64,000 nt of DNA, taken from the IMG/VR virus record IMGVR_UViG_2974596396_000001, positions 88,254 through 152,253 of that record. One strand, written 5' to 3'. The notes beneath the pieces were generated by a model, which was not told where the DNA came from, ran no database searches, and saw only the letters and a program-made list of their open reading frames with translations. A program made the position numbers and the translations under genes. This stretch comes from a virus. Its lineage: Duplodnaviria; Heunggongvirae; Uroviricota; Caudoviricetes; Ackermannviridae. Of this stretch, positions 18,426 to 47,821 are shown one piece after another (position 1 is the stretch's first letter; every line of letters starts with the position of its first letter).

Positions 18426-19349
18426 ATGTTTTATGAATTGTTGGTTTCTAAAGGCGGCAAACCGCATTTTGTCAAGAAGTATTTGAGGATGGTTCAATCT
18501 TTCAAATATTCTGATGGTGACTACACCGAATTACACCACATCCTTCCCAAGAGCATGTTCCCTGAATATTCCAAAGACAAGATCAATTTGACAAGACTTA
18601 CTGGCAGGCAACATTATCTTGCCCATGTGTGTTTGGCCTTGGCTTTCCCACACACGAGAATGGTGTATGCTGTGGTAGCTATGAGAAAGGGAGGAAGGAG
18701 AAATAAATCAGGGATTCGGTTTAATTCTCATTTGTATGAAAGTTTCAGAATTAAATTCAGTGAACAACTATCTTTACAATGGAAAGGGGTTTCTCGGTTT
18801 GTGGGTAAAGACAACCCAATGTATGGGAGAAGGGGAAAGAATAATCCCCAATATGGATATAAGAGAACTCCAGAGCAAGTCAAGAAAATTACCAAAGGAT
18901 TGATGAAAATCCATGAAAGGATGGCTTCTGATCCGGAATATAAAAGAGAAGTTTTAGATCAGCGTCGTGCCAATACGGATTTAAAGCAATTTTCTGAGCG
19001 TTCCCGCCAAGCAAAACTCGGGAAACTCAACCCAAATTATGGGAAGGACTTAACCAACTCATTCACACCAGAGCAACGCGCCAAACAGAAAGAAAACGCT
19101 CAGAAAGGCATGTTGGTTAAGATGCCCTGGGAGAAGGGTAAATGGAACCCAGAAAATGATGTATATTGGGAGAAAGCTGATCAATTCCTTGAAGCCCTGA
19201 AAACGATGAAACGTTCAGAAGCCCTCTTGTTTGTGTACGGAACAAAGGATTTGAAGGCGTTTAATGCATCTAGTGGGATCATCGAACGTTTCAATAAAGG
19301 GTGGGAACCATTAAAATGTGGTAAATGGTTAAAAAGGTACAAAGGATAA
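18426..19349 (+). CDS. HNH homing endonuclease with NUMOD-like repeats
   Basis: ELHHILPKS-HYLAH HNH core, plus repeated NPMYGRRGKNNPQYG modules. Free-standing gene. Confidence 0.7.
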   Translation: MFYELLVSKGGKPHFVKKYLRMVQSFKYSDGDYTELHHILPKSMFPEYSKDKINLTRLTGRQHYLAHVCLALAFPHTRMVYAVVAMRKGGRRNKSGIRFNSHLYESFRIKFSEQLSLQWKGVSRFVGKDNPMYGRRGKNNPQYGYKRTPEQVKKITKGLMKIHERMASDPEYKREVLDQRRANTDLKQFSERSRQAKLGKLNPNYGKDLTNSFTPEQRAKQKENAQKGMLVKMPWEKGKWNPENDVYWEKADQFLEALKTMKRSEALLFVYGTKDLKAFNASSGIIERFNKGWEPLKCGKWLKRYKG

Positions 19350-26700: not shown

Positions 26701-26759
26701 TTCTATAAATTATGGCGGGGTATGATTACCCCGTCGATTTGAAATGCAGGAACTATACC

Positions 26760-27215
26760 ATGACTCGCATCAATGTTATTCCCGTTGAATCTCTTTGCGA
26801 CCAACACCTCCTTGCCGAGTATAAAGAACTTGCGCCTGTTGTCCTTAACGTGGTGAATGGAAAACGCCGTAATCTCAAGGGCGCTCCAAAGCAGTACAAA
26901 CTCAACGAAGGTCATGTGCTGTTCTTCCGCGACAAACTCATTTATCTGATCGAGCGTTACGATCAGCTTGTTGCCGAACTGATTTCTCGTGGGTATGTTG
27001 TCAACTATCCTTCGCTCCGCAATCAGGTGACGTCCGACAATCGACAGGAACTCGCGATCTATTTGAACGATTACCAACCGACCCAGGCCGCAGTAGAAGA
27101 GAATGCCGAGCGCATTGTCGAACGTCTGAATGGCATGGGCAAGATCACGTATAACAGAACACCAGTAGATTCATCCTACATGGTGAACGTTATGAAACAA
27201 ACATTCCAATTTTGA
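26760..27215 (+). CDS. denV: Endonuclease V (pyrimidine-dimer DNA glycosylase) DenV
   Basis: MTRINVIPVESLCDQHLLAEYKELA-NGKR-GHV-FF-DKL is collinear with T4 DenV, [24 protein letters not shown]. Confidence 0.85.
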   Translation: MTRINVIPVESLCDQHLLAEYKELAPVVLNVVNGKRRNLKGAPKQYKLNEGHVLFFRDKLIYLIERYDQLVAELISRGYVVNYPSLRNQVTSDNRQELAIYLNDYQPTQAAVEENAERIVERLNGMGKITYNRTPVDSSYMVNVMKQTFQF

Positions 27216-29290: not shown

Positions 29291-30082
29291 ATGATCATTA
29301 CCAAAAAGATCGCTGAGGCGATCGTTGAAAAGAATAAAATGTTCGCACCTAACAAAGCAAAGGTTATTCTGATCCATGATGATGGTCGCGTGGTCTTCGC
29401 TGAAAAATTTGAGCAAGGGTGCGCTTTCTGGTTTGCAGACACGATGCGTGAAAGCAAGCTACAGGGCATCATTTACAAATTAACTCTGGTTGCCAAGCGC
29501 AACGACCAGGGTGACTGGGTTACGGTTTGTGATTTCAGCTCCAAGGTTGATACTCGACCAAAATCTCGCCAAGAGAGAATTCTGGAAGCTCAGGAAAAAC
29601 TTGTTGCTGCTCGTACTTCACCAGTCATTAAGCCAGCAGTCATCTCCCCTTCTATTGATCTGCCGCCTGTCAGCCAAAAGGCTGTTGAGCAATATGCAGA
29701 AAAACGAAAAGAAGAACCCGTGAAGTCTCCGGTTGAGAATAAAGAAGAATCTGAATTTATTTCAATCAGGCAGTTATGTCCGCAAGAAAGGCGATTTTCT
29801 TCACCAAATGATTTATTCGTGTCTTTCCGGTCTAATGGGAAGATTATATTGTGCAAAACCCTACGGGAACAATTGCAGTGGCCTAACATCAATATGATGG
29901 TGAGTCGGAACTTCAAACGATTCGCAATCGGTGAAGGTAAAGATTATCCTGTTAATAAGAGCGGAACATATGCAAATCGTCATATGTGCGACAAATTGTC
30001 TTTCCCAAACGATTCTGGCACTATTCGTGTTCGTTTAGAATGGGATGAAAGTTTGAACATGTATGTCGGTGATATAAAATAA
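29291..30082 (+). CDS. Hypothetical protein
   Basis: ATG (or GTG at 29288). Confidence 0.5.
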   Translation: MIITKKIAEAIVEKNKMFAPNKAKVILIHDDGRVVFAEKFEQGCAFWFADTMRESKLQGIIYKLTLVAKRNDQGDWVTVCDFSSKVDTRPKSRQERILEAQEKLVAARTSPVIKPAVISPSIDLPPVSQKAVEQYAEKRKEEPVKSPVENKEESEFISIRQLCPQERRFSSPNDLFVSFRSNGKIILCKTLREQLQWPNINMMVSRNFKRFAIGEGKDYPVNKSGTYANRHMCDKLSFPNDSGTIRVRLEWDESLNMYVGDIK

Positions 30083-30095
30083 TTCAATAACATTA

Positions 30096-30125
30096 GGGCG
30101 GTTATTATTAAACCGCCTTTTATTT
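30096..30125 (+). terminator. Rho-independent terminator
   Basis: GGCGGTT-ATTATTA-AACCGCC followed by TTTTATTT. Confidence 0.7.
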
Positions 30126-30139
30126 GAGAGATCTATATT

Positions 30140-30808
30140 ATGAACAACAAGAGCCGTATTATCATCGGGGCTGACCAGGGTAATTTATATTTTGAAAGAT
30201 CTGATGTTGTCGCCCACGCTATCCTTCCCACTGGAATTTCCGTTTATTGTGTGGAACATCCTGACCCTGCAGTTAAACGTCTTTGCTATGTCTCCCGTGA
30301 AAATGGACTAATTGTATTGCCAGAAGGCGCGATTATGCGCGCTCGTTTTTGGCCGATCGATTTTAATTCCGTGAGCAATAGGGAGATCGACGCCCGTTTC
30401 TTCGTACATAATATGAACCGGACTCTGAAAAATGAAACTCAGAGAGTTGTTCATTTCGACAATGAAACTCATGGAGTGACGTTAGAATTCAGAACTCGTG
30501 GTGAAGCTCTTCAGGTGAAGAAATCAAGCTGGAAAACTGAAGGGACGTTCACATATGATTATGCGTTAATCGACAAATTGTGTAATCAGTTTCGCATTAG
30601 CCTGACTGCCAACGACGATTTAGGTCAGTATGTTGTATGGACAGCCCGTTCACCACATATGAACGGTATCATGATGGAGAGTGAAACTCGTAATCGCGCT
30701 GTGCTCCAACTGCTGCTGTTAGACGCGTATTCTCGCAACCCGTTGGAATATCTGTCTCGGGAACAGATTGATAACGCGCTTTCTCATTGTAACCGTCTGG
30801 AGGTGTAA
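30140..30808 (+). CDS. Hypothetical protein
   Basis: ORF. Confidence 0.5.
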   Translation: MNNKSRIIIGADQGNLYFERSDVVAHAILPTGISVYCVEHPDPAVKRLCYVSRENGLIVLPEGAIMRARFWPIDFNSVSNREIDARFFVHNMNRTLKNETQRVVHFDNETHGVTLEFRTRGEALQVKKSSWKTEGTFTYDYALIDKLCNQFRISLTANDDLGQYVVWTARSPHMNGIMMESETRNRAVLQLLLLDAYSRNPLEYLSREQIDNALSHCNRLEV

Positions 30809-30809
30809 T

Positions 30810-31097
30810 ATGTCCGGCGTATGGTGTGATGTATTGTTGGTAAGATTTTCAAACGGGATGGATAACCAGATTATTTCATTCTTTTATCCTGTTCCCTTTT
30901 CTTCTATGGGTCTGACTGTCAAGCGCGTTCTTGACATAGAAGAAAAACTCAACGCCATGCCGTATATGGCGCGACCACACGTGCTGGGTTGTGAACTGTT
31001 AAACGAAATGATGATTGACGAGAACCTTGTTGAAACCATCATTACTCGTGAGCAAATGAAAGTAATATTGGCGCAGGGAGAACCCCATGTCGAATAA
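30810..31097 (+). CDS. Hypothetical protein
   Basis: GGAGGT RBS. Inner start of ORF 30768. Confidence 0.45.
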   Translation: MSGVWCDVLLVRFSNGMDNQIISFFYPVPFSSMGLTVKRVLDIEEKLNAMPYMARPHVLGCELLNEMMIDENLVETIITREQMKVILAQGEPHVE

Positions 31098-31407
31098 ACC
31101 GTTTGAACTTAAATTTCGCGTTTGGCATATTCCCCAGGTTCCTGGGATCGCTTTTCATGTTGAGGTTCCAACATTTGAAGAAGCGCAGCGCCTGAAGAAT
31201 ACTCTGGCTGATTACGACCTGTTTCAGTATAACAATAACATCAAGCCGGATTATTGTAATGCTTCCGGCGTTCAAATATACCAACATGATCTGACTGAAG
31301 AAGATCTAAATGATATGGGTCTGGATGATCGTTGGGTTGATATCGAAGATATTGACGAACTCAACGATTATTTTGATCATCTGCGTAGCACAGGGTGGGA
31401 AATATGA
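31087..31407 (+). CDS. Hypothetical acidic protein
   Basis: GGAGAA RBS. Asp/Glu-rich C-terminal half. Confidence 0.45.
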   Translation: MSNKPFELKFRVWHIPQVPGIAFHVEVPTFEEAQRLKNTLADYDLFQYNNNIKPDYCNASGVQIYQHDLTEEDLNDMGLDDRWVDIEDIDELNDYFDHLRSTGWEI

Positions 31408-31613
31408 TCGGGTTAATCCGTTATCTGTTCATATTCGTAATTTCAACATTCATTTTATTTTTCTTTTTCAAATACTTGAAAGAGACTAAAATCTACCGAA
31501 GTAAACGTTGGCGTAAACGGGTGAGGGTAACTTTCCTGCTGCTGATTTCTTCGGTTACAATAACCGCACTCACATTGGGTGCTTATATTTACATTTTTGA
31601 AGGGGTACATTGA
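31404..31613 (+). CDS. Small 2-TM membrane protein
   Basis: Two hydrophobic helices separated by the basic loop KRWRKR. Translationally coupled to the SPFH gene. Confidence 0.45.
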   Translation: MIGLIRYLFIFVISTFILFFFFKYLKETKIYRSKRWRKRVRVTFLLLISSVTITALTLGAYIYIFEGVH

Positions 31614-32404
31614 TGTTCAAGAAATTGGTGTTTGGTGCAATTATGGTTCTGGCTGCAAGTCTACTTTCTGGTTGTGGTGGCGTTATCGATGAAGGTAATG
31701 TCGGCGTTCGAACCCAATGGGGTGAAGTGGACATGAACCCTGTAACCGCAGGTATCTACACCAGTTTCGTTTCAAGTGTAGATGTCTATACGACTAAAGA
31801 AGCCGTCGTGAGTCTGACGAAAATGACGCCAAAGGCCAAAGACAACCTGACCTTGGAAGATCTGGATGTGGACGTTTATTACACACCGAACGTCGCGAAG
31901 GTTCCTTGGTTCCATACCAAATTTGCAGGTCAGAGCGCTGAACTCGGTGACGGCACGATAGCGGTGGGATTCAACCTGGTTAAAACCGCCGCAGCATCCT
32001 CAACGATGGACGCCGTTTCCTCTTTGGATTCTATGACAATTCACACCCAACGGGCTGAGTTAGAAAAGATGATCAAGGAACGCACCCAGCAGCAATTGGA
32101 AACTGCTGCGCCTGGCATGTTCACAATCACACGTGTGTTGGTGAAAAAGGCGCTGACAGATCCTTCGATTGAGCAATCTATCCGTGATAATGTCATGGCC
32201 GACAAACGTTTGGATACAGCAAGAAAGAACGTTGAAATTCGAGACCAAGAAGCCAGGGCGAATCAGAAACTGACGACATCTCTGACACCTGAATATTTAC
32301 AACACGAATATAACATGGTGTTGCAATCTTGCGCCAACAGCGGGAAATGTACTCTGATCGTTGACGGATCCGGCTCAGGTAAAATGCTGAACGTCGGCAA
32401 ATAA
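31613..32404 (+). CDS. SPFH/Band-7 (stomatin/HflK-like) domain lipoprotein
   Basis: Lipobox LLSGC. VIDEGNVGVRTQWGEV fits the SPFH N-terminal motif. GAAGGGG RBS. Confidence 0.6.
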   Translation: MFKKLVFGAIMVLAASLLSGCGGVIDEGNVGVRTQWGEVDMNPVTAGIYTSFVSSVDVYTTKEAVVSLTKMTPKAKDNLTLEDLDVDVYYTPNVAKVPWFHTKFAGQSAELGDGTIAVGFNLVKTAAASSTMDAVSSLDSMTIHTQRAELEKMIKERTQQQLETAAPGMFTITRVLVKKALTDPSIEQSIRDNVMADKRLDTARKNVEIRDQEARANQKLTTSLTPEYLQHEYNMVLQSCANSGKCTLIVDGSGSGKMLNVGK

Positions 32405-32825: not shown

Positions 32826-32853
32826 AAGCCGAGGTTAATGCCTCGGCTTTTTC
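32826..32853 (+). terminator. Rho-independent terminator
   Basis: AAGCCGAGG-TTAATG-CCTCGGCTT followed by TTT. Confidence 0.85.
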
Positions 32854-35969: not shown

Positions 35970-36692
35970 ATGAGTATTCCATTCGTTTACTGTTTGAAAA
36001 GTAAGGATGGACATTTGTATTTTGGCTCCAAGATTGGAGAAGATTCTGATCCAAAGCAGCTTATGGAAACATATTTCACTTCATCAAAATATGTCAAAGA
36101 CTTGATGAAAACAAAAGGAAACGATTATTTTCAGGTAGTGGGTATAGAAATATTTCCAGGTAAACCGGAAGAAGCGTTTTGGAAAGAACAACAATTGATA
36201 GAGTCCTCTTACGACAACCCCATGTTACTAAACAAACATTATCAAACTGTTGGGACTAAACCATGGACTCAATTAGGCAGAAAGGGGAACAAACAGTATT
36301 TGTTTGGAAAGGGGCACCTCCGCGCTGGTAAAAATAATCCAATGTTTGGTAAACAAGGAGCCATGAAAGGTATTACAGGGAAAGACCATCCGGCCTATGG
36401 CGTAGATCGGTCGGGTGACAAAAATGGTATGTTTGGGAAATGCGGGGAATTACATCACCACTATGGAACTCCTCCATGGGAAGTTCCAATAAGCAAGAAA
36501 TTGGGGACTTCAAAACATTGGTTGGTTGCAGAAGAAATACGATTGGAGTGGGTTGCTGGCGCAAGGCAATGCGACTTGTCAAGGAAATATGGAATTAGCA
36601 TAAAGACCATTGAAACTATGGTCGGCAAATTCCGTTCCGGTTGGATACCTTCACAAGACCCTCAGTGGGTTAATTTTAAAGGTGGTGTATAA
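35970..36692 (+). CDS. GIY-YIG homing endonuclease (Seg-like) with NUMOD3 repeats
   Basis: FVYCLKSKDGHLYFGSK GIY-YIG core. Repeated NPMFGK/HPAYG/NGMFGK modules. Confidence 0.65.
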   Translation: MSIPFVYCLKSKDGHLYFGSKIGEDSDPKQLMETYFTSSKYVKDLMKTKGNDYFQVVGIEIFPGKPEEAFWKEQQLIESSYDNPMLLNKHYQTVGTKPWTQLGRKGNKQYLFGKGHLRAGKNNPMFGKQGAMKGITGKDHPAYGVDRSGDKNGMFGKCGELHHHYGTPPWEVPISKKLGTSKHWLVAEEIRLEWVAGARQCDLSRKYGISIKTIETMVGKFRSGWIPSQDPQWVNFKGGV

Positions 36693-46532: not shown

Positions 46533-47150
46533 ATGGGCAAAATATTCATACCTTCGCATTCAGAAGGTTGTCAGATCGCAGCAAAATATCTTCACAAGCA
46601 AATGAACTGTGGTGCTGTGTTTGTAGAACCAAATTCTTTTGATAATCGTGAATCCCCTGACGCCATCGGGTTCAGACCTGGGGGTTGTTCTATATTAATG
46701 GAAGTTAAAGTCTCCCGCGCCGACTTCCTGACAGACAAAAAGAAACCTCATCGCATGAATCCTTCAACAGGAATGGGGGCATACCGATTTTATGTTTGTC
46801 CTGCTGATGTGATCAAAGTTGAAGATCTCCCACCAAAGTGGGTATTATTATATTTCACTCCTCGGAAATCATTGAAGCCCGTTCACGTTCCGAATATGCA
46901 ATATTCTTCGTTATCTTCTCCGGAACATTATGCATCATATTTGTCTAAATCCTTGGGCAAAAGAAATCCTACAGATATCCCTCCTTACCTGTTAGGATAC
47001 AAGCAGATGTTGGAAGAATTCGCCCACTTTGAACGAAATCAAGTCGCAGAGCAGAATATTCTATATGGTGCATGGAGACAGCTTTGCATAGCTCAAAGTC
47101 GCGGTGTAAATTATAATGTGACAGAAGTATTCCAAAGGCCAAACATATGA
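46533..47150 (+). CDS. PD-(D/E)XK-fold (VRR-NUC/MmcB-like) putative nuclease
   Basis: SPDAIGF-ILMEVKVSR fits the PD-(D/E)XK motif. Confidence 0.4.
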   Translation: MGKIFIPSHSEGCQIAAKYLHKQMNCGAVFVEPNSFDNRESPDAIGFRPGGCSILMEVKVSRADFLTDKKKPHRMNPSTGMGAYRFYVCPADVIKVEDLPPKWVLLYFTPRKSLKPVHVPNMQYSSLSSPEHYASYLSKSLGKRNPTDIPPYLLGYKQMLEEFAHFERNQVAEQNILYGAWRQLCIAQSRGVNYNVTEVFQRPNI

Positions 47151-47821
47151 ACTATAAAAGGATACACGACTCCATAATTTCCAGGGCGGTTAATCGGTCA
47201 CTGCCTTCGGGTTACACAGAGAAACATCATATCATTCCTCTTTCCATGGGTGGTAAAGATAGGAAATTTAATATGGTGGTTTTGACAGCGTCAGAACATT
47301 ATATTGTGCATATGTTGTTGGCTAAGATGTTTGGTGAAGTTATGAACAAAGCATTTACCAAAATGAAACATCTTACATCCAATCCATCCAATAACAAGGA
47401 GTTTTCATTAAGAAGGGAAATGATATGCACTATTTCTGGAAACAACGCTAAAAATGAAAGAAACAGAAAGACTCATTCTGATAAAATAAAAGGCCGAAAA
47501 CATACAGAAATTACCAAGAAATCTATTTCGGATTCTATGAAAGGGGTTAATAACCCAATGAAGGGGACCAGTCCTTGGAGAAATCCGACTAATATAAAAC
47601 GGGGTTCTCATAAAAATTGGTTGATAGCGGATAAAATATATGACAAATGGTGTAAGAACAAATCTGTTAGAGTCATAGATTTACTCAATGGAAACGATAT
47701 GCAGACTTCGTATACGACAGTTACAACTATGAAATTGAAATTTGAAGCTGGTTGGGTTCCTAAAGAAGACGAAGATTGGATTATCTTTGTCAAGGAGAAC
47801 AAACATGAAATTTCTCGATGA
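47147..47821 (+). CDS. HNH homing endonuclease
   Basis: YTEKHHIIPLSMGG-N-VVLTASEHYIVH HNH core. Basic C-terminal DNA-binding half. Confidence 0.65.
   Translation: MNYKRIHDSIISRAVNRSLPSGYTEKHHIIPLSMGGKDRKFNMVVLTASEHYIVHMLLAKMFGEVMNKAFTKMKHLTSNPSNNKEFSLRREMICTISGNNAKNERNRKTHSDKIKGRKHTEITKKSISDSMKGVNNPMKGTSPWRNPTNIKRGSHKNWLIADKIYDKWCKNKSVRVIDLLNGNDMQTSYTTVTTMKLKFEAGWVPKEDEDWIIFVKENKHEISR

Follow-up and report, generated by a model that had tools for sequence, protein, structure and literature searches.

Why does a large tailed phage encode a protein of the SPFH family, and why is a very small membrane protein translated immediately ahead of it? This question is raised by two adjoining genes, gp160 and gp161 (31404-32404), in a 64,000-nucleotide stretch of an Ackermannviridae genome (positions 88,254 to 152,253 of IMG/VR record IMGVR_UViG_2974596396_000001; hereafter the window). 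SPFH proteins (stomatin, prohibitin, flotillin, HflK/C) are known as membrane cages whose contents and purpose are mostly unclear, and the copies encoded by viruses, although noted over twenty years, have been given no function. The 4-kb stretch round the two genes is 100% identical to Salmonella phages Se-H, Se-I, Se-J and Se-N and 97-98% identical to many other Kuttervirus (Vi01-like, Ackermannviridae) genomes, and window positions 1-49747 equal RefSeq NC_049497.1 from base 88254 on; we use the gene names of Se-J, in which gp160 is labelled 'hypothetical protein' and gp161 'lipoprotein'. The original prediction, made from the sequence of the window, described the pair as an SPFH/Band-7 lipoprotein and a small coupled protein with two transmembrane (TM) helices, and profile, fold and comparative evidence all agree with this description. 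We are highly confident of the identity of the SPFH lipoprotein and of its conserved pairing with a two-TM protein. GenBank records already name gp161 'SPFH domain band 7 family (lipo)protein', and the SPFH annotation is therefore public; the invariable small partner and the phage-specific changes described below are absent from annotations and from the searchable literature.

The profile search that had been suggested as a check of the original prediction confirmed the SPFH identity of gp161, which matched Pfam Band_7 (PF01145) with E=1.2e-12 and 48.6 bits (cut-off 23.6) over profile positions 2-168 of 176, as well as PHROG 200 'lipoprotein' with E=1.3e-57. PF01145 was also present in all 59 database homologues of gp161 except one fusion fragment. 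The extent of the domain had been overestimated, however: it had been placed at residues 24-264 and covers residues 24-208 only, the remainder of the protein being a long helical region and a C-terminal tail. The ATG start at 31613 gives a protein of 263 residues, and 264 are obtained only by counting from the TTG at 31610. The AlphaFold2 (AF2) model of gp161, which was built with 33 homologues and, like that of gp160, is a single chain, has a mean predicted local distance difference test score (pLDDT) of 86. Its SPFH domain is rich in beta structure, and the strands and helices follow those of SPFH1/SPFH2; after the domain come a helix of 40 residues (184-223), another at 226-242 and a C-terminal tail. 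The last 20 residues of the tail are of low confidence, with a pLDDT of 46-67 round a pair of cysteines discussed below, which would be expected of a segment that folds only within an oligomer but is no evidence for one. A Foldseek search of the PDB with this model returned full-length matches (230-290 columns, probability 1.00, E 1e-12 to 1e-8) to prohibitin, erlin, HflK/C, stomatin and QmcA, with flotillin and vault weaker, and the alignments extend over the long helical region in the cage-forming SPFH proteins. The two helices of the model thus appear to be the equivalents of the CC1/CC2 wall helices of SPFH cages. In one gp161 subfamily, exactly 11 residues (three helical turns) are inserted into the long helix, which would fit a helix whose register matters.

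The N-terminus of gp161 (MFKKLVFGAIMVLAASLLSGC) consists of a basic n-region, a hydrophobic core and the lipobox L-S-G-C that the original prediction had read there. Scored against the lipoprotein signal pattern (basic n-region, hydrophobic h-region, lipobox [LVI][ASTVI][GAS]C and Cys at position 15-35), it was recognized as MFKK-LVFGAIMVLAASL-LSGC with the lipid-accepting residue at Cys21. The predicted mature protein begins C-G-G-V-I-D-E-G-N-V-G-V, and the first SPFH strand starts 2-3 residues after the lipobox Cys with no tether between them. The lipobox occurs in 47 of the 59 database homologues, and in the family alignment its Cys coincides with the point at which the TM helix of the bacterial relatives ends; since across the family it also lies only 1-3 residues from the first strand, the lipid appears to have replaced the helix without an added tether. 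We predict that gp161 is exported and lipid-modified at Cys21, and that the whole mature protein is a periplasm-facing SPFH scaffold pinned straight to the membrane.

The pair of cysteines near the C-terminus points to the same compartment. Both members of the C-x5-6-C motif are present in 42 of the 47 lipobox-bearing homologues and neither in the other 5, while exactly one was found in none; the pair is likewise missing from all 10 TM-anchored homologues. Such joint retention or loss is as expected of a disulfide, and a disulfide in turn implies a periplasmic location. Cys240-Cys246 of gp161, which directly precede the C-terminal hydrophobic strand TLIVDGS, are therefore a predicted disulfide able to form only in the periplasm. 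In a metagenomic homologue with 51% identity (P0012), Trp (LTGW) replaces the lipobox Cys that all other lipoprotein-type members have, yet both C-terminal cysteines are kept. The Trp reflects either an error in sequencing or a variant whose signal anchor is not cleaved.

We then considered the small partner. The AF2 model of gp160 is a helical hairpin (helices 2-27 and 34-68, pLDDT 78), with which hydropathy analysis agrees. Its connecting loop contains 10 Lys/Arg versus 1 Asp/Glu and its C-tail is acidic; summed over 19 partner proteins, the loops hold 92 Lys/Arg versus 29 Asp/Glu and the C-tails 5 versus 17. According to the positive-inside rule, a basic loop and an acidic tail place the loop in the cytoplasm and the tail in the periplasm, on the same side as gp161, and gp160 is accordingly predicted to be an inner-membrane helical hairpin with a cytoplasmic loop and a short acidic periplasmic C-tail. 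The partner proteins form BLAST-connected subfamilies that align on a common plan, namely M-h-x-R/K, TM1, a basic loop, TM2 and a tail of 2-6 residues with an acidic residue. A profile search with the gp160 family against 5.8 billion proteins recovered only 16 members, all of them 'hypothetical' and none with a Pfam domain. Profile searches with gp160 gave no Pfam, NfeD, holin or PDB match, and the 19 partner proteins matched no Pfam family above noise, the holin families among them, nor YbbJ or any other chain of the PDB. NfeD was rejected as the identity of the partner: none of the 19 proteins matches PF01957 at E up to 0.1, and 53-69 residues leave no space for an OB-fold.

The pairing itself was assessed across relatives of gp161 drawn from the protein database, IMG/VR and the contigs that encode them. 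In all 19 distinct phage loci, the SPFH proteins of which are 37-53% identical to gp161, the SPFH gene is preceded on its own strand by a homologous or analogous small two-TM open reading frame (ORF) of 55-71 codons. This ORF overlaps the SPFH start or ends at most about 30 nucleotides before it, except in locus L026, which has one gene in between. The original annotation had missed several of these ORFs, for example the 57-residue partner at 5831-6004 of L005, from an uncultured phage, which lies between rIIB and the SPFH gene with an ATGA overlap and has its equivalent at 2544-2717 of L006. The window and every related locus carry a single SPFH gene. The pair is also found in a Massilia phage-like contig (L039) and in a Ralstonia integrated element (L107), where a partner-family member directly precedes the Band_7 gene in a large phage-like region of the Ralstonia pickettii chromosome. 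Among more distant proteins, cyanophage S-CREM1 has a 53-residue two-helix protein before a TM-anchored SPFH protein (27% identity), and in Acinetobacter phage phiAB441 a 92-residue membrane protein abuts an SPFH lipoprotein. An all-against-all BLAST of the flanking ORFs for further conserved neighbours returned only clade-specific synteny, one clade having 8 loci that share an RNase T-like exonuclease. The chromosomal region of the Ralstonia element (CP104381.1, 1013301-1033501) encodes a phage-type ribonucleotide reductase, ThyX and an RNase T-like exonuclease besides the two-TM/SPFH pair, and some members of the ~110-kb phage clade in which the pair occurs may therefore be integrated or temperate; contigs of 111 kb from Burkholderia gladioli (L004) and 113 kb from Massilia (L039) can be set beside it.

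Bacterial chromosomes provided a control. A one-genome-per-species scan yielded 65 loci, mostly from Beta- and Gammaproteobacteria, with 29-44% identity to gp161; the N-termini were readable in ~48 of 63, the ORF choice having fallen in an overlapping frame in ~12 high-GC loci. Nearly all of the ~48 readable relatives have a TM helix leading straight into TGNVGV (two contain ambiguous lipobox-like strings), and neither the C-terminal Cys pair nor an upstream two-TM gene was found among them. The only true positive for both features is the Massilia locus L039, which bears the sequence signature of the phage clade. The bacterial relatives share no conserved neighbour, neither NfeD nor ftsH, and are surrounded by housekeeping genes. 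The nearest sequences of all, at 33-44% full-length identity, are solitary TM-anchored SPFH proteins of Beta- and Gammaproteobacteria such as Steroidobacter, Zoogloea, Methyloversatilis and Uliginosibacterium, which are annotated as 'SPFH domain-containing' or 'HflC-like' and are uncharacterized. They are equal in length to gp161 and share the motifs TGNVGV, TPKAxDNL and TDPSIEQSI with it, but they have an N-terminal TM helix in place of the lipobox, and lack both the Cys pair and the two-TM gene. On these comparisons, the pairing appears to be conserved in phages and absent from their closest bacterial relatives.

The arrangement of the two genes is equally tight in the window itself. The TGA of gp160 (31611-31613) has its A in common with the ATG of gp161 (31613-31615), so that the TGATG coupling of the 69-codon upstream gene had been correctly described, as had the gene coordinates and the remaining features read from the sequence. 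The start of gp160 in turn overlaps the stop of a gene homologous to P22 gene 17 as ATGA (31404-31407). Shine-Dalgarno-like sequences precede both starts, AAGGGG (31600-31605) that of gp161 and GGGTGGG (31393-31399) that of gp160. The positions of all features are collected in the table below.

Table. Features of the gp160-gp161 locus, in window coordinates.
Feature	Coordinates	Strand	Basis
gp160 gene, predicted 69-residue two-helix (hairpin) inner-membrane protein; PHROG 11680, function unknown	31404..31613	+	ORF reading, AF2, comparative
gp161 gene, 263-residue SPFH/Band-7 lipoprotein; PHROG 200 'lipoprotein'	31613..32404	+	Pfam, PHROG, AF2, Foldseek
Lipoprotein signal peptide, lipobox LSGC, Cys21 at 31673-31675	31613..31675	+	Sequence reading
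SPFH (Band_7) domain, residues 24-208	31682..32236	+	Pfam match and AF2 secondary structure
Long helical region after the SPFH domain, helices 184-223 and 226-242	32162..32338	+	AF2, Foldseek
Cys240-x5-Cys246 pair (CANSGKC), predicted periplasmic disulfide	32330..32350	+	Homologue comparison
TGATG stop/start overlap, gp160 gene to gp161 gene	31611..31615	+	Sequence reading
Upstream neighbour, P22 gp17 homologue (Pfam GP17 'superinfection exclusion gene product 17')	31087..31407	+	PF17420 E=1e-49

Sequence variation suggests that both genes matter to the phages that carry them. They are annotated in more than 160 Kuttervirus records, and within Kuttervirus the ratio of non-synonymous to synonymous polymorphism (pN/pS) is ~0.01-0.03 for the SPFH gene and ~0-0.06 for the two-TM gene; one comparison of the SPFH gene gave 76 synonymous versus 6 non-synonymous differences, and the two-TM gene gave 5-8 versus 0-1. 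Both genes are under strong purifying selection. Between some Kutterviruses (L009, L010, L011 and L036 against the window) the SPFH gene falls to ~90% nucleotide identity (pS ~0.4) whereas the adjoining two-TM gene stays 96-97% identical (pS ~0.1-0.15), a contrast suggesting that a recombination boundary lies where the two genes meet or close to it. A foreign base composition was considered and rejected, as the gp161 gene has a GC content of 47.6% versus 44.9% for the window; the 35.7% of the gp160 gene is explained by its Phe/Ile/Leu content.

The same genes are deleted in the viable Salmonella phages GG32, STP55 and SeHz-1. In GG32 (2450-2701 of L033) an in-frame fusion joins gp160 residues 1-17 to the C-terminal 66 residues of gp161 in an 83-residue ORF, and this deletion is a natural double knock-out of the cassette. 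Phage bering matches the cassette in two separate parts, as if the reading frame were disrupted. Taipeivirus has no cassette, and none was detected by tblastn in the Dickeya, Klebsiella or Shigella records of Ackermannviridae. The two genes thus behave as an accessory set, of value in nature but not on a laboratory lawn.

The surroundings of the cassette vary between phages. In the window it closes a tightly packed five-gene run (30140-32404) that is followed by an 83-nucleotide gap and an HU gene. In Kuttervirus it lies ~2.2 kb downstream of the spanin genes, and in Erwinia phage Bue1 directly after the spanins and before the gp17-like gene; in the uncultured phage represented by L005 and L006 it directly follows rIIA-rIIB. 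In most phages the neighbours are replication and repair genes (RecA/UvsX, FEN, ligase, DNA polymerase, exonucleases and helicases). A three-gene unit with the gp17-like gene was rejected, because that gene stands on the other side of the cassette in Bue1 and is not beside it in other clades. Membership in a defence system was likewise rejected, with no PADLOC match for the cassette or its four upstream neighbours. The gp17-like gene is ~68-72% identical over ~230 nucleotides to P22 (~68%), phage L, H-19B and Stx phages, a similarity that in a virulent myovirus suggests exchange between temperate lambdoid phages and Ackermannviridae. The slot between the gp17-like gene and the HU gene also gains and loses a gene of ~102 codons for a LysM-domain protein without signal peptide, which stands between the gp17-like gene and the cassette in Matapan (L036, 1905-2213) and GG32 (L033, 2145-2453) and is missing from the window. 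In Taipeivirus KWBSE43-6 a 104-residue product annotated 'endolysin' (L035, 3809-4123) is likened to the LysM protein by position alone, and its label looks like over-annotation for so short a protein. In L005, a 251-residue TM and coiled-coil protein is encoded right after the SPFH gene.

As to expression, a terminator-like hairpin (30095-30119) lies upstream of the five-gene run, and a second strong one, a hairpin on both strands, just after the HU gene (32826-32849). The sole promoter-like match before the run (30053-30083) is located ahead of the first hairpin. No T4-type late promoter (TATAAATA) was found within 23 kb upstream, nor one close by even with one mismatch allowed, and early or middle expression is likely on these grounds. 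A literature search for Kuttervirus transcriptomics found nothing usable.

Elsewhere in the window, homing-endonuclease genes of Se-J are found at 18426-19349, 35970-36692 and 47147-47821, the second of which, between RNase H and the late sigma factor, is absent from that place in phage FrontPhageNews; the same phage has other small genes instead of the denV-like endonuclease V gene (26712-27215). Records named 'Pseudomonas phage Pa-sanjiao' and an 'Enterococcus' phage (MN871475.1 is among the matches) are 97-98% identical to Salmonella Kutterviruses here, so that these host labels are probably wrong or derived from contamination.

What such a cassette might do can be approached through the systems it resembles. 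Two structural reports describe all SPFH proteins of solved structure as forming a membrane ring or dome, with HflK/C as a 24-mer that encloses FtsH on the periplasmic side and QmcA as a 26-mer with an NfeD partner on the cytoplasmic side (bioRxiv 10.1101/2025.04.21.649849; PMC13086221), and NfeD is thought to promote SPFH oligomerization (PMC13086221). HflK/HflC-FtsH shares with gp161 the SPFH fold and long wall helix (Foldseek E ~1e-11). Its SPFH domain lies on the periplasmic side of the inner membrane; a periplasmic location, perhaps at the same membrane, is predicted for gp161 from its signal peptide, lipobox and Cys pair. The phage protein differs in being encoded by one gene instead of a pair, in having a lipid anchor instead of a TM helix, in its shorter wall helix and in its dedicated two-TM partner. 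The SPFH-NfeD operons, to which the original prediction had likened the locus, include E. coli QmcA-YbbJ and YqiK-YqiJ, Pyrococcus PH1511-PH1510 and the flotillin-NfeD pairs of B. subtilis and S. aureus. The likeness holds for the gene arrangement, an SPFH gene fixed beside a co-directional gene for a small membrane protein, and for the fold of QmcA (Foldseek E 8.5e-9), but not for the partner, which has no NfeD/OB-fold domain in its 53-69 residues; QmcA-YbbJ also faces the cytoplasm (PMC13086221), whereas gp161 is predicted to be periplasmic.

Viral SPFH proteins have been recorded repeatedly. Those of T4-like phages were tabulated in 2006 (PMC1524935), and BFVD contains many viral SPFH models that match gp161 structurally at E 3e-19 to 1e-10. 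The proteins of T4-like 44RR, Aeh1 and RB43, Vibrio phage pVa5, Rhizobium phage Pasto, N4-like GIB1 and giant viruses are structurally similar to gp161 but mostly share 10-23% identity with it and are described as TM-anchored. The combination of lipobox, Cys pair and two-TM partner is undescribed for any of them, the partner having been looked for in S-CREM1 and phiAB441 only. Authors commenting on phage SPFH proteins call their role unclear, and full-text literature searches turned up no functional study of any of them. With superinfection-exclusion proteins (T4 Imm and Sp, T5 Llp, Cor and P22 SieA), the cassette has in common that it is accessory, dispensable and predicted to be in the envelope, a likeness of location and genomic behaviour only. 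Imm of T4 is a small inner-membrane protein with two TM helices, and Llp and Cor are lipoproteins. The cassette has no sequence relationship to any of these proteins, and PHROG and Pfam comparisons placed it in none of the Imm/Sp, Llp, Cor or SieA families, PHROG 200 and 11680 being the only families matched.

We propose that the two co-translated genes constitute a phage accessory envelope cassette that would not be needed for replication or virion assembly. As gp161 has all the parts (anchor, SPFH domain, wall helices and C-terminal strand), it would most likely oligomerize as the SPFH proteins of solved structure do, here forming a ring or dome at the periplasmic surface of the inner membrane; judged by these analogies, we regard such a ring or cage as an evenly balanced prospect. 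In this assembly, gp160 may be the integral-membrane subunit, either as an enclosed client or as a nucleator, and would play for gp161 the part that NfeD plays for QmcA, although it is unrelated to NfeD, while the Cys pair could stabilize the cap region. The gp161-gp160 assembly would fence off a patch of inner membrane in the infected cell. The most speculative step is that the envelope of the infected cell would thereby be protected to the benefit of the phage. Superinfecting phages might be excluded at the step of DNA entry, or the sequestration of host inner-membrane proteins might confer resistance to membrane-directed abortive infection or premature lysis. Protection or exclusion is favoured because the cassette is accessory, located in the envelope, found in large phages and placed beside rII or gp17-type genes; as a specific role it is tentative, and we consider it rather doubtful. 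The original prediction had named membrane proteostasis, superinfection exclusion and counter-defence as possible functions. The entire chain of reasoning, from an SPFH ring or cage on the periplasmic side of the inner membrane, with a membrane subunit of its own, to envelope protection or exclusion, seems to us plausible but falls slightly short of an even balance. Its boldest form, in which the phages possess their own SPFH cage, lipid-anchored, disulfide-locked and built round a phage-only two-helix subunit, that corrals host inner-membrane proteins such as FtsH or DNA-entry channels as a new exclusion or anti-abortive-infection device, is unlikely.

Several observations weigh against this proposal. 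Asp at position +2 is the canonical inner-membrane retention signal of Enterobacteria, and by the textbook rule other residues lead to outer-membrane sorting. With Gly at +2, gp161 would be predicted to reach the outer membrane and to be parted from gp160 in the inner membrane. The residue after the lipobox Cys in the 47 homologues is G in 34, F in 8, M in 3, V in 1 and D in 1, with Y in three IMG/VR loci. One reporter study points the other way, reportedly having found inner-membrane retention for G, F and Y as well as D. The SPFH protein of S-CREM1 retains a TM anchor yet has a small partner, so that the partner is not simply a substitute for a lost TM helix. The vicinity of the spanin genes in Ackermannviridae fits a role in lysis as well as a protective one, and sigma-70-like promoter matches are not above those of shuffled sequence (22 versus 16.9 +/- 4.8).

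The +2 residue is also the starting point for an account in which gp161 is sorted by the Lol system to the outer membrane, where it would block a receptor or entry route or stiffen the membrane, with the two-TM gene as a mere co-expressed neighbour or export helper. Lipoproteins of lytic phages such as T5 Llp do act from the outer membrane by blocking receptor or entry. This account is nevertheless quite improbable in our view, because the conserved partner is an alpha-helical hairpin, which indicates the inner membrane, and because a pairing maintained in such diverse phages and hosts suggests that the two proteins are physical partners; moreover, there is no tether between lipid anchor and fold, the closest bacterial relatives are TM-anchored and hence in the inner membrane, and gp161 has no homology to the Llp or Cor families. 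A Pasteurella prophage-encoded HflK/C-like protein reported in outer-membrane vesicles (PMC9872710) is a further point in its favour. If, on the other hand, gp161 is located in the inner membrane, it might act as an HflK/C mimic that cages or displaces host FtsH or joins HflK/C, thereby altering FtsH-dependent turnover of membrane or phage proteins. The predicted topology of gp161 is that of HflK/C, HflK/C-FtsH structures are among its best fold matches (E 6e-12 to 1e-8), and HflC is the sole curated NCBIfam family touched by the bacterial relatives (E ~1e-7, far below its cut-off). The phage of L005/L006 has a gene for a Bax1-I (YccA-type) membrane protein 3.5 kb downstream (9578-10270 of L005), and E. 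coli YccA binds FtsH and HflKC. However, the fold matches to prohibitin, erlin and stomatin are equally good, sequence identity to HflK/C is 15-17%, and neither the gp161 sequence nor its family profile retrieved any SPFH chain from the PDB even at E up to 10. Orthology to HflK or HflC was rejected, with 12.1 bits against a cut-off of 134.4 for the NCBIfam hflC model and no hit for hflK, and this leaves fold and topology as the grounds for a connection to FtsH. There is one SPFH gene instead of an HflK/HflC pair, the conserved two-TM partner has no counterpart in the hfl system and the bacterial relatives do not lie beside ftsH; we consider such mimicry distinctly unlikely.

A function in lysis timing would make gp160 a holin- or antiholin-like protein that gp161 corrals or releases to set the time of lysis or lysis inhibition. 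The position of the cassette relative to the spanins in Bue1 and Kuttervirus and after rIIA-rIIB in L005/L006 is in keeping with this, as rII is linked to T4 lysis phenotypes, and the partners resemble class II holins in length and in number of TM helices; a single partner among the 19 gave a weak match to the LydA holin family (E=0.03). Yet no holin family was matched above noise, and the partners lack a charged cytoplasmic C-terminal tail, theirs being acidic and 2-6 residues long. No endolysin gene is annotated in the neighbourhoods examined, it is replication and repair genes that recur beside the cassette in other phage clades, and no late promoter is nearby. The deletions in viable GG32, STP55 and SeHz-1 further imply that gp160 is not an essential holin, and only a slender probability remains for this function. 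Least of all do we favour a virion-associated or structural role for gp161, the finding that the original prediction had named as fatal to it. The counterpart of gp161 was indeed detected by mass spectrometry in caesium chloride (CsCl)-purified phage Sajous1, where it is listed as SPFH (PMC10892097). It accounts for 3 spectra only, compared with hundreds for structural proteins and similar counts for non-structural ones (rIIB 1-2, terminase 1-4, acyl carrier protein 1), so that in this, the only proteomic record, it is at the level of rIIB and terminase carry-over. The lipoprotein signal peptide, the location among replication genes and the deletion in viable phages likewise speak against a structural role, which was rejected on the spectral counts and is extremely improbable; in Sajous1, the protein is expressed but is not a stoichiometric virion component.

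Our favoured proposal, an accessory envelope cassette built on gp161 and gp160, would present a compact, phage-specific version of an SPFH system, with a lipid anchor, a periplasmic Cys pair and an obligatory-looking partner that is not NfeD. Nature supplies the controls, in the form of sister Kutterviruses with an in-frame deletion of both genes and related genera without the cassette, and what a viral SPFH scaffold does can thus be tested directly, with only two small genes, in Salmonella and E. coli phages already in use for biocontrol. Should no effect be found, gp161 would be an ordinary, already annotated accessory gene, whereas exclusion or counter-defence would represent a new class of mechanism. 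In its boldest form, the proposal would, if true, assign a function to a virus-encoded SPFH protein for the first time, and would offer structural biology a natural SPFH-plus-partner system of minimal size.

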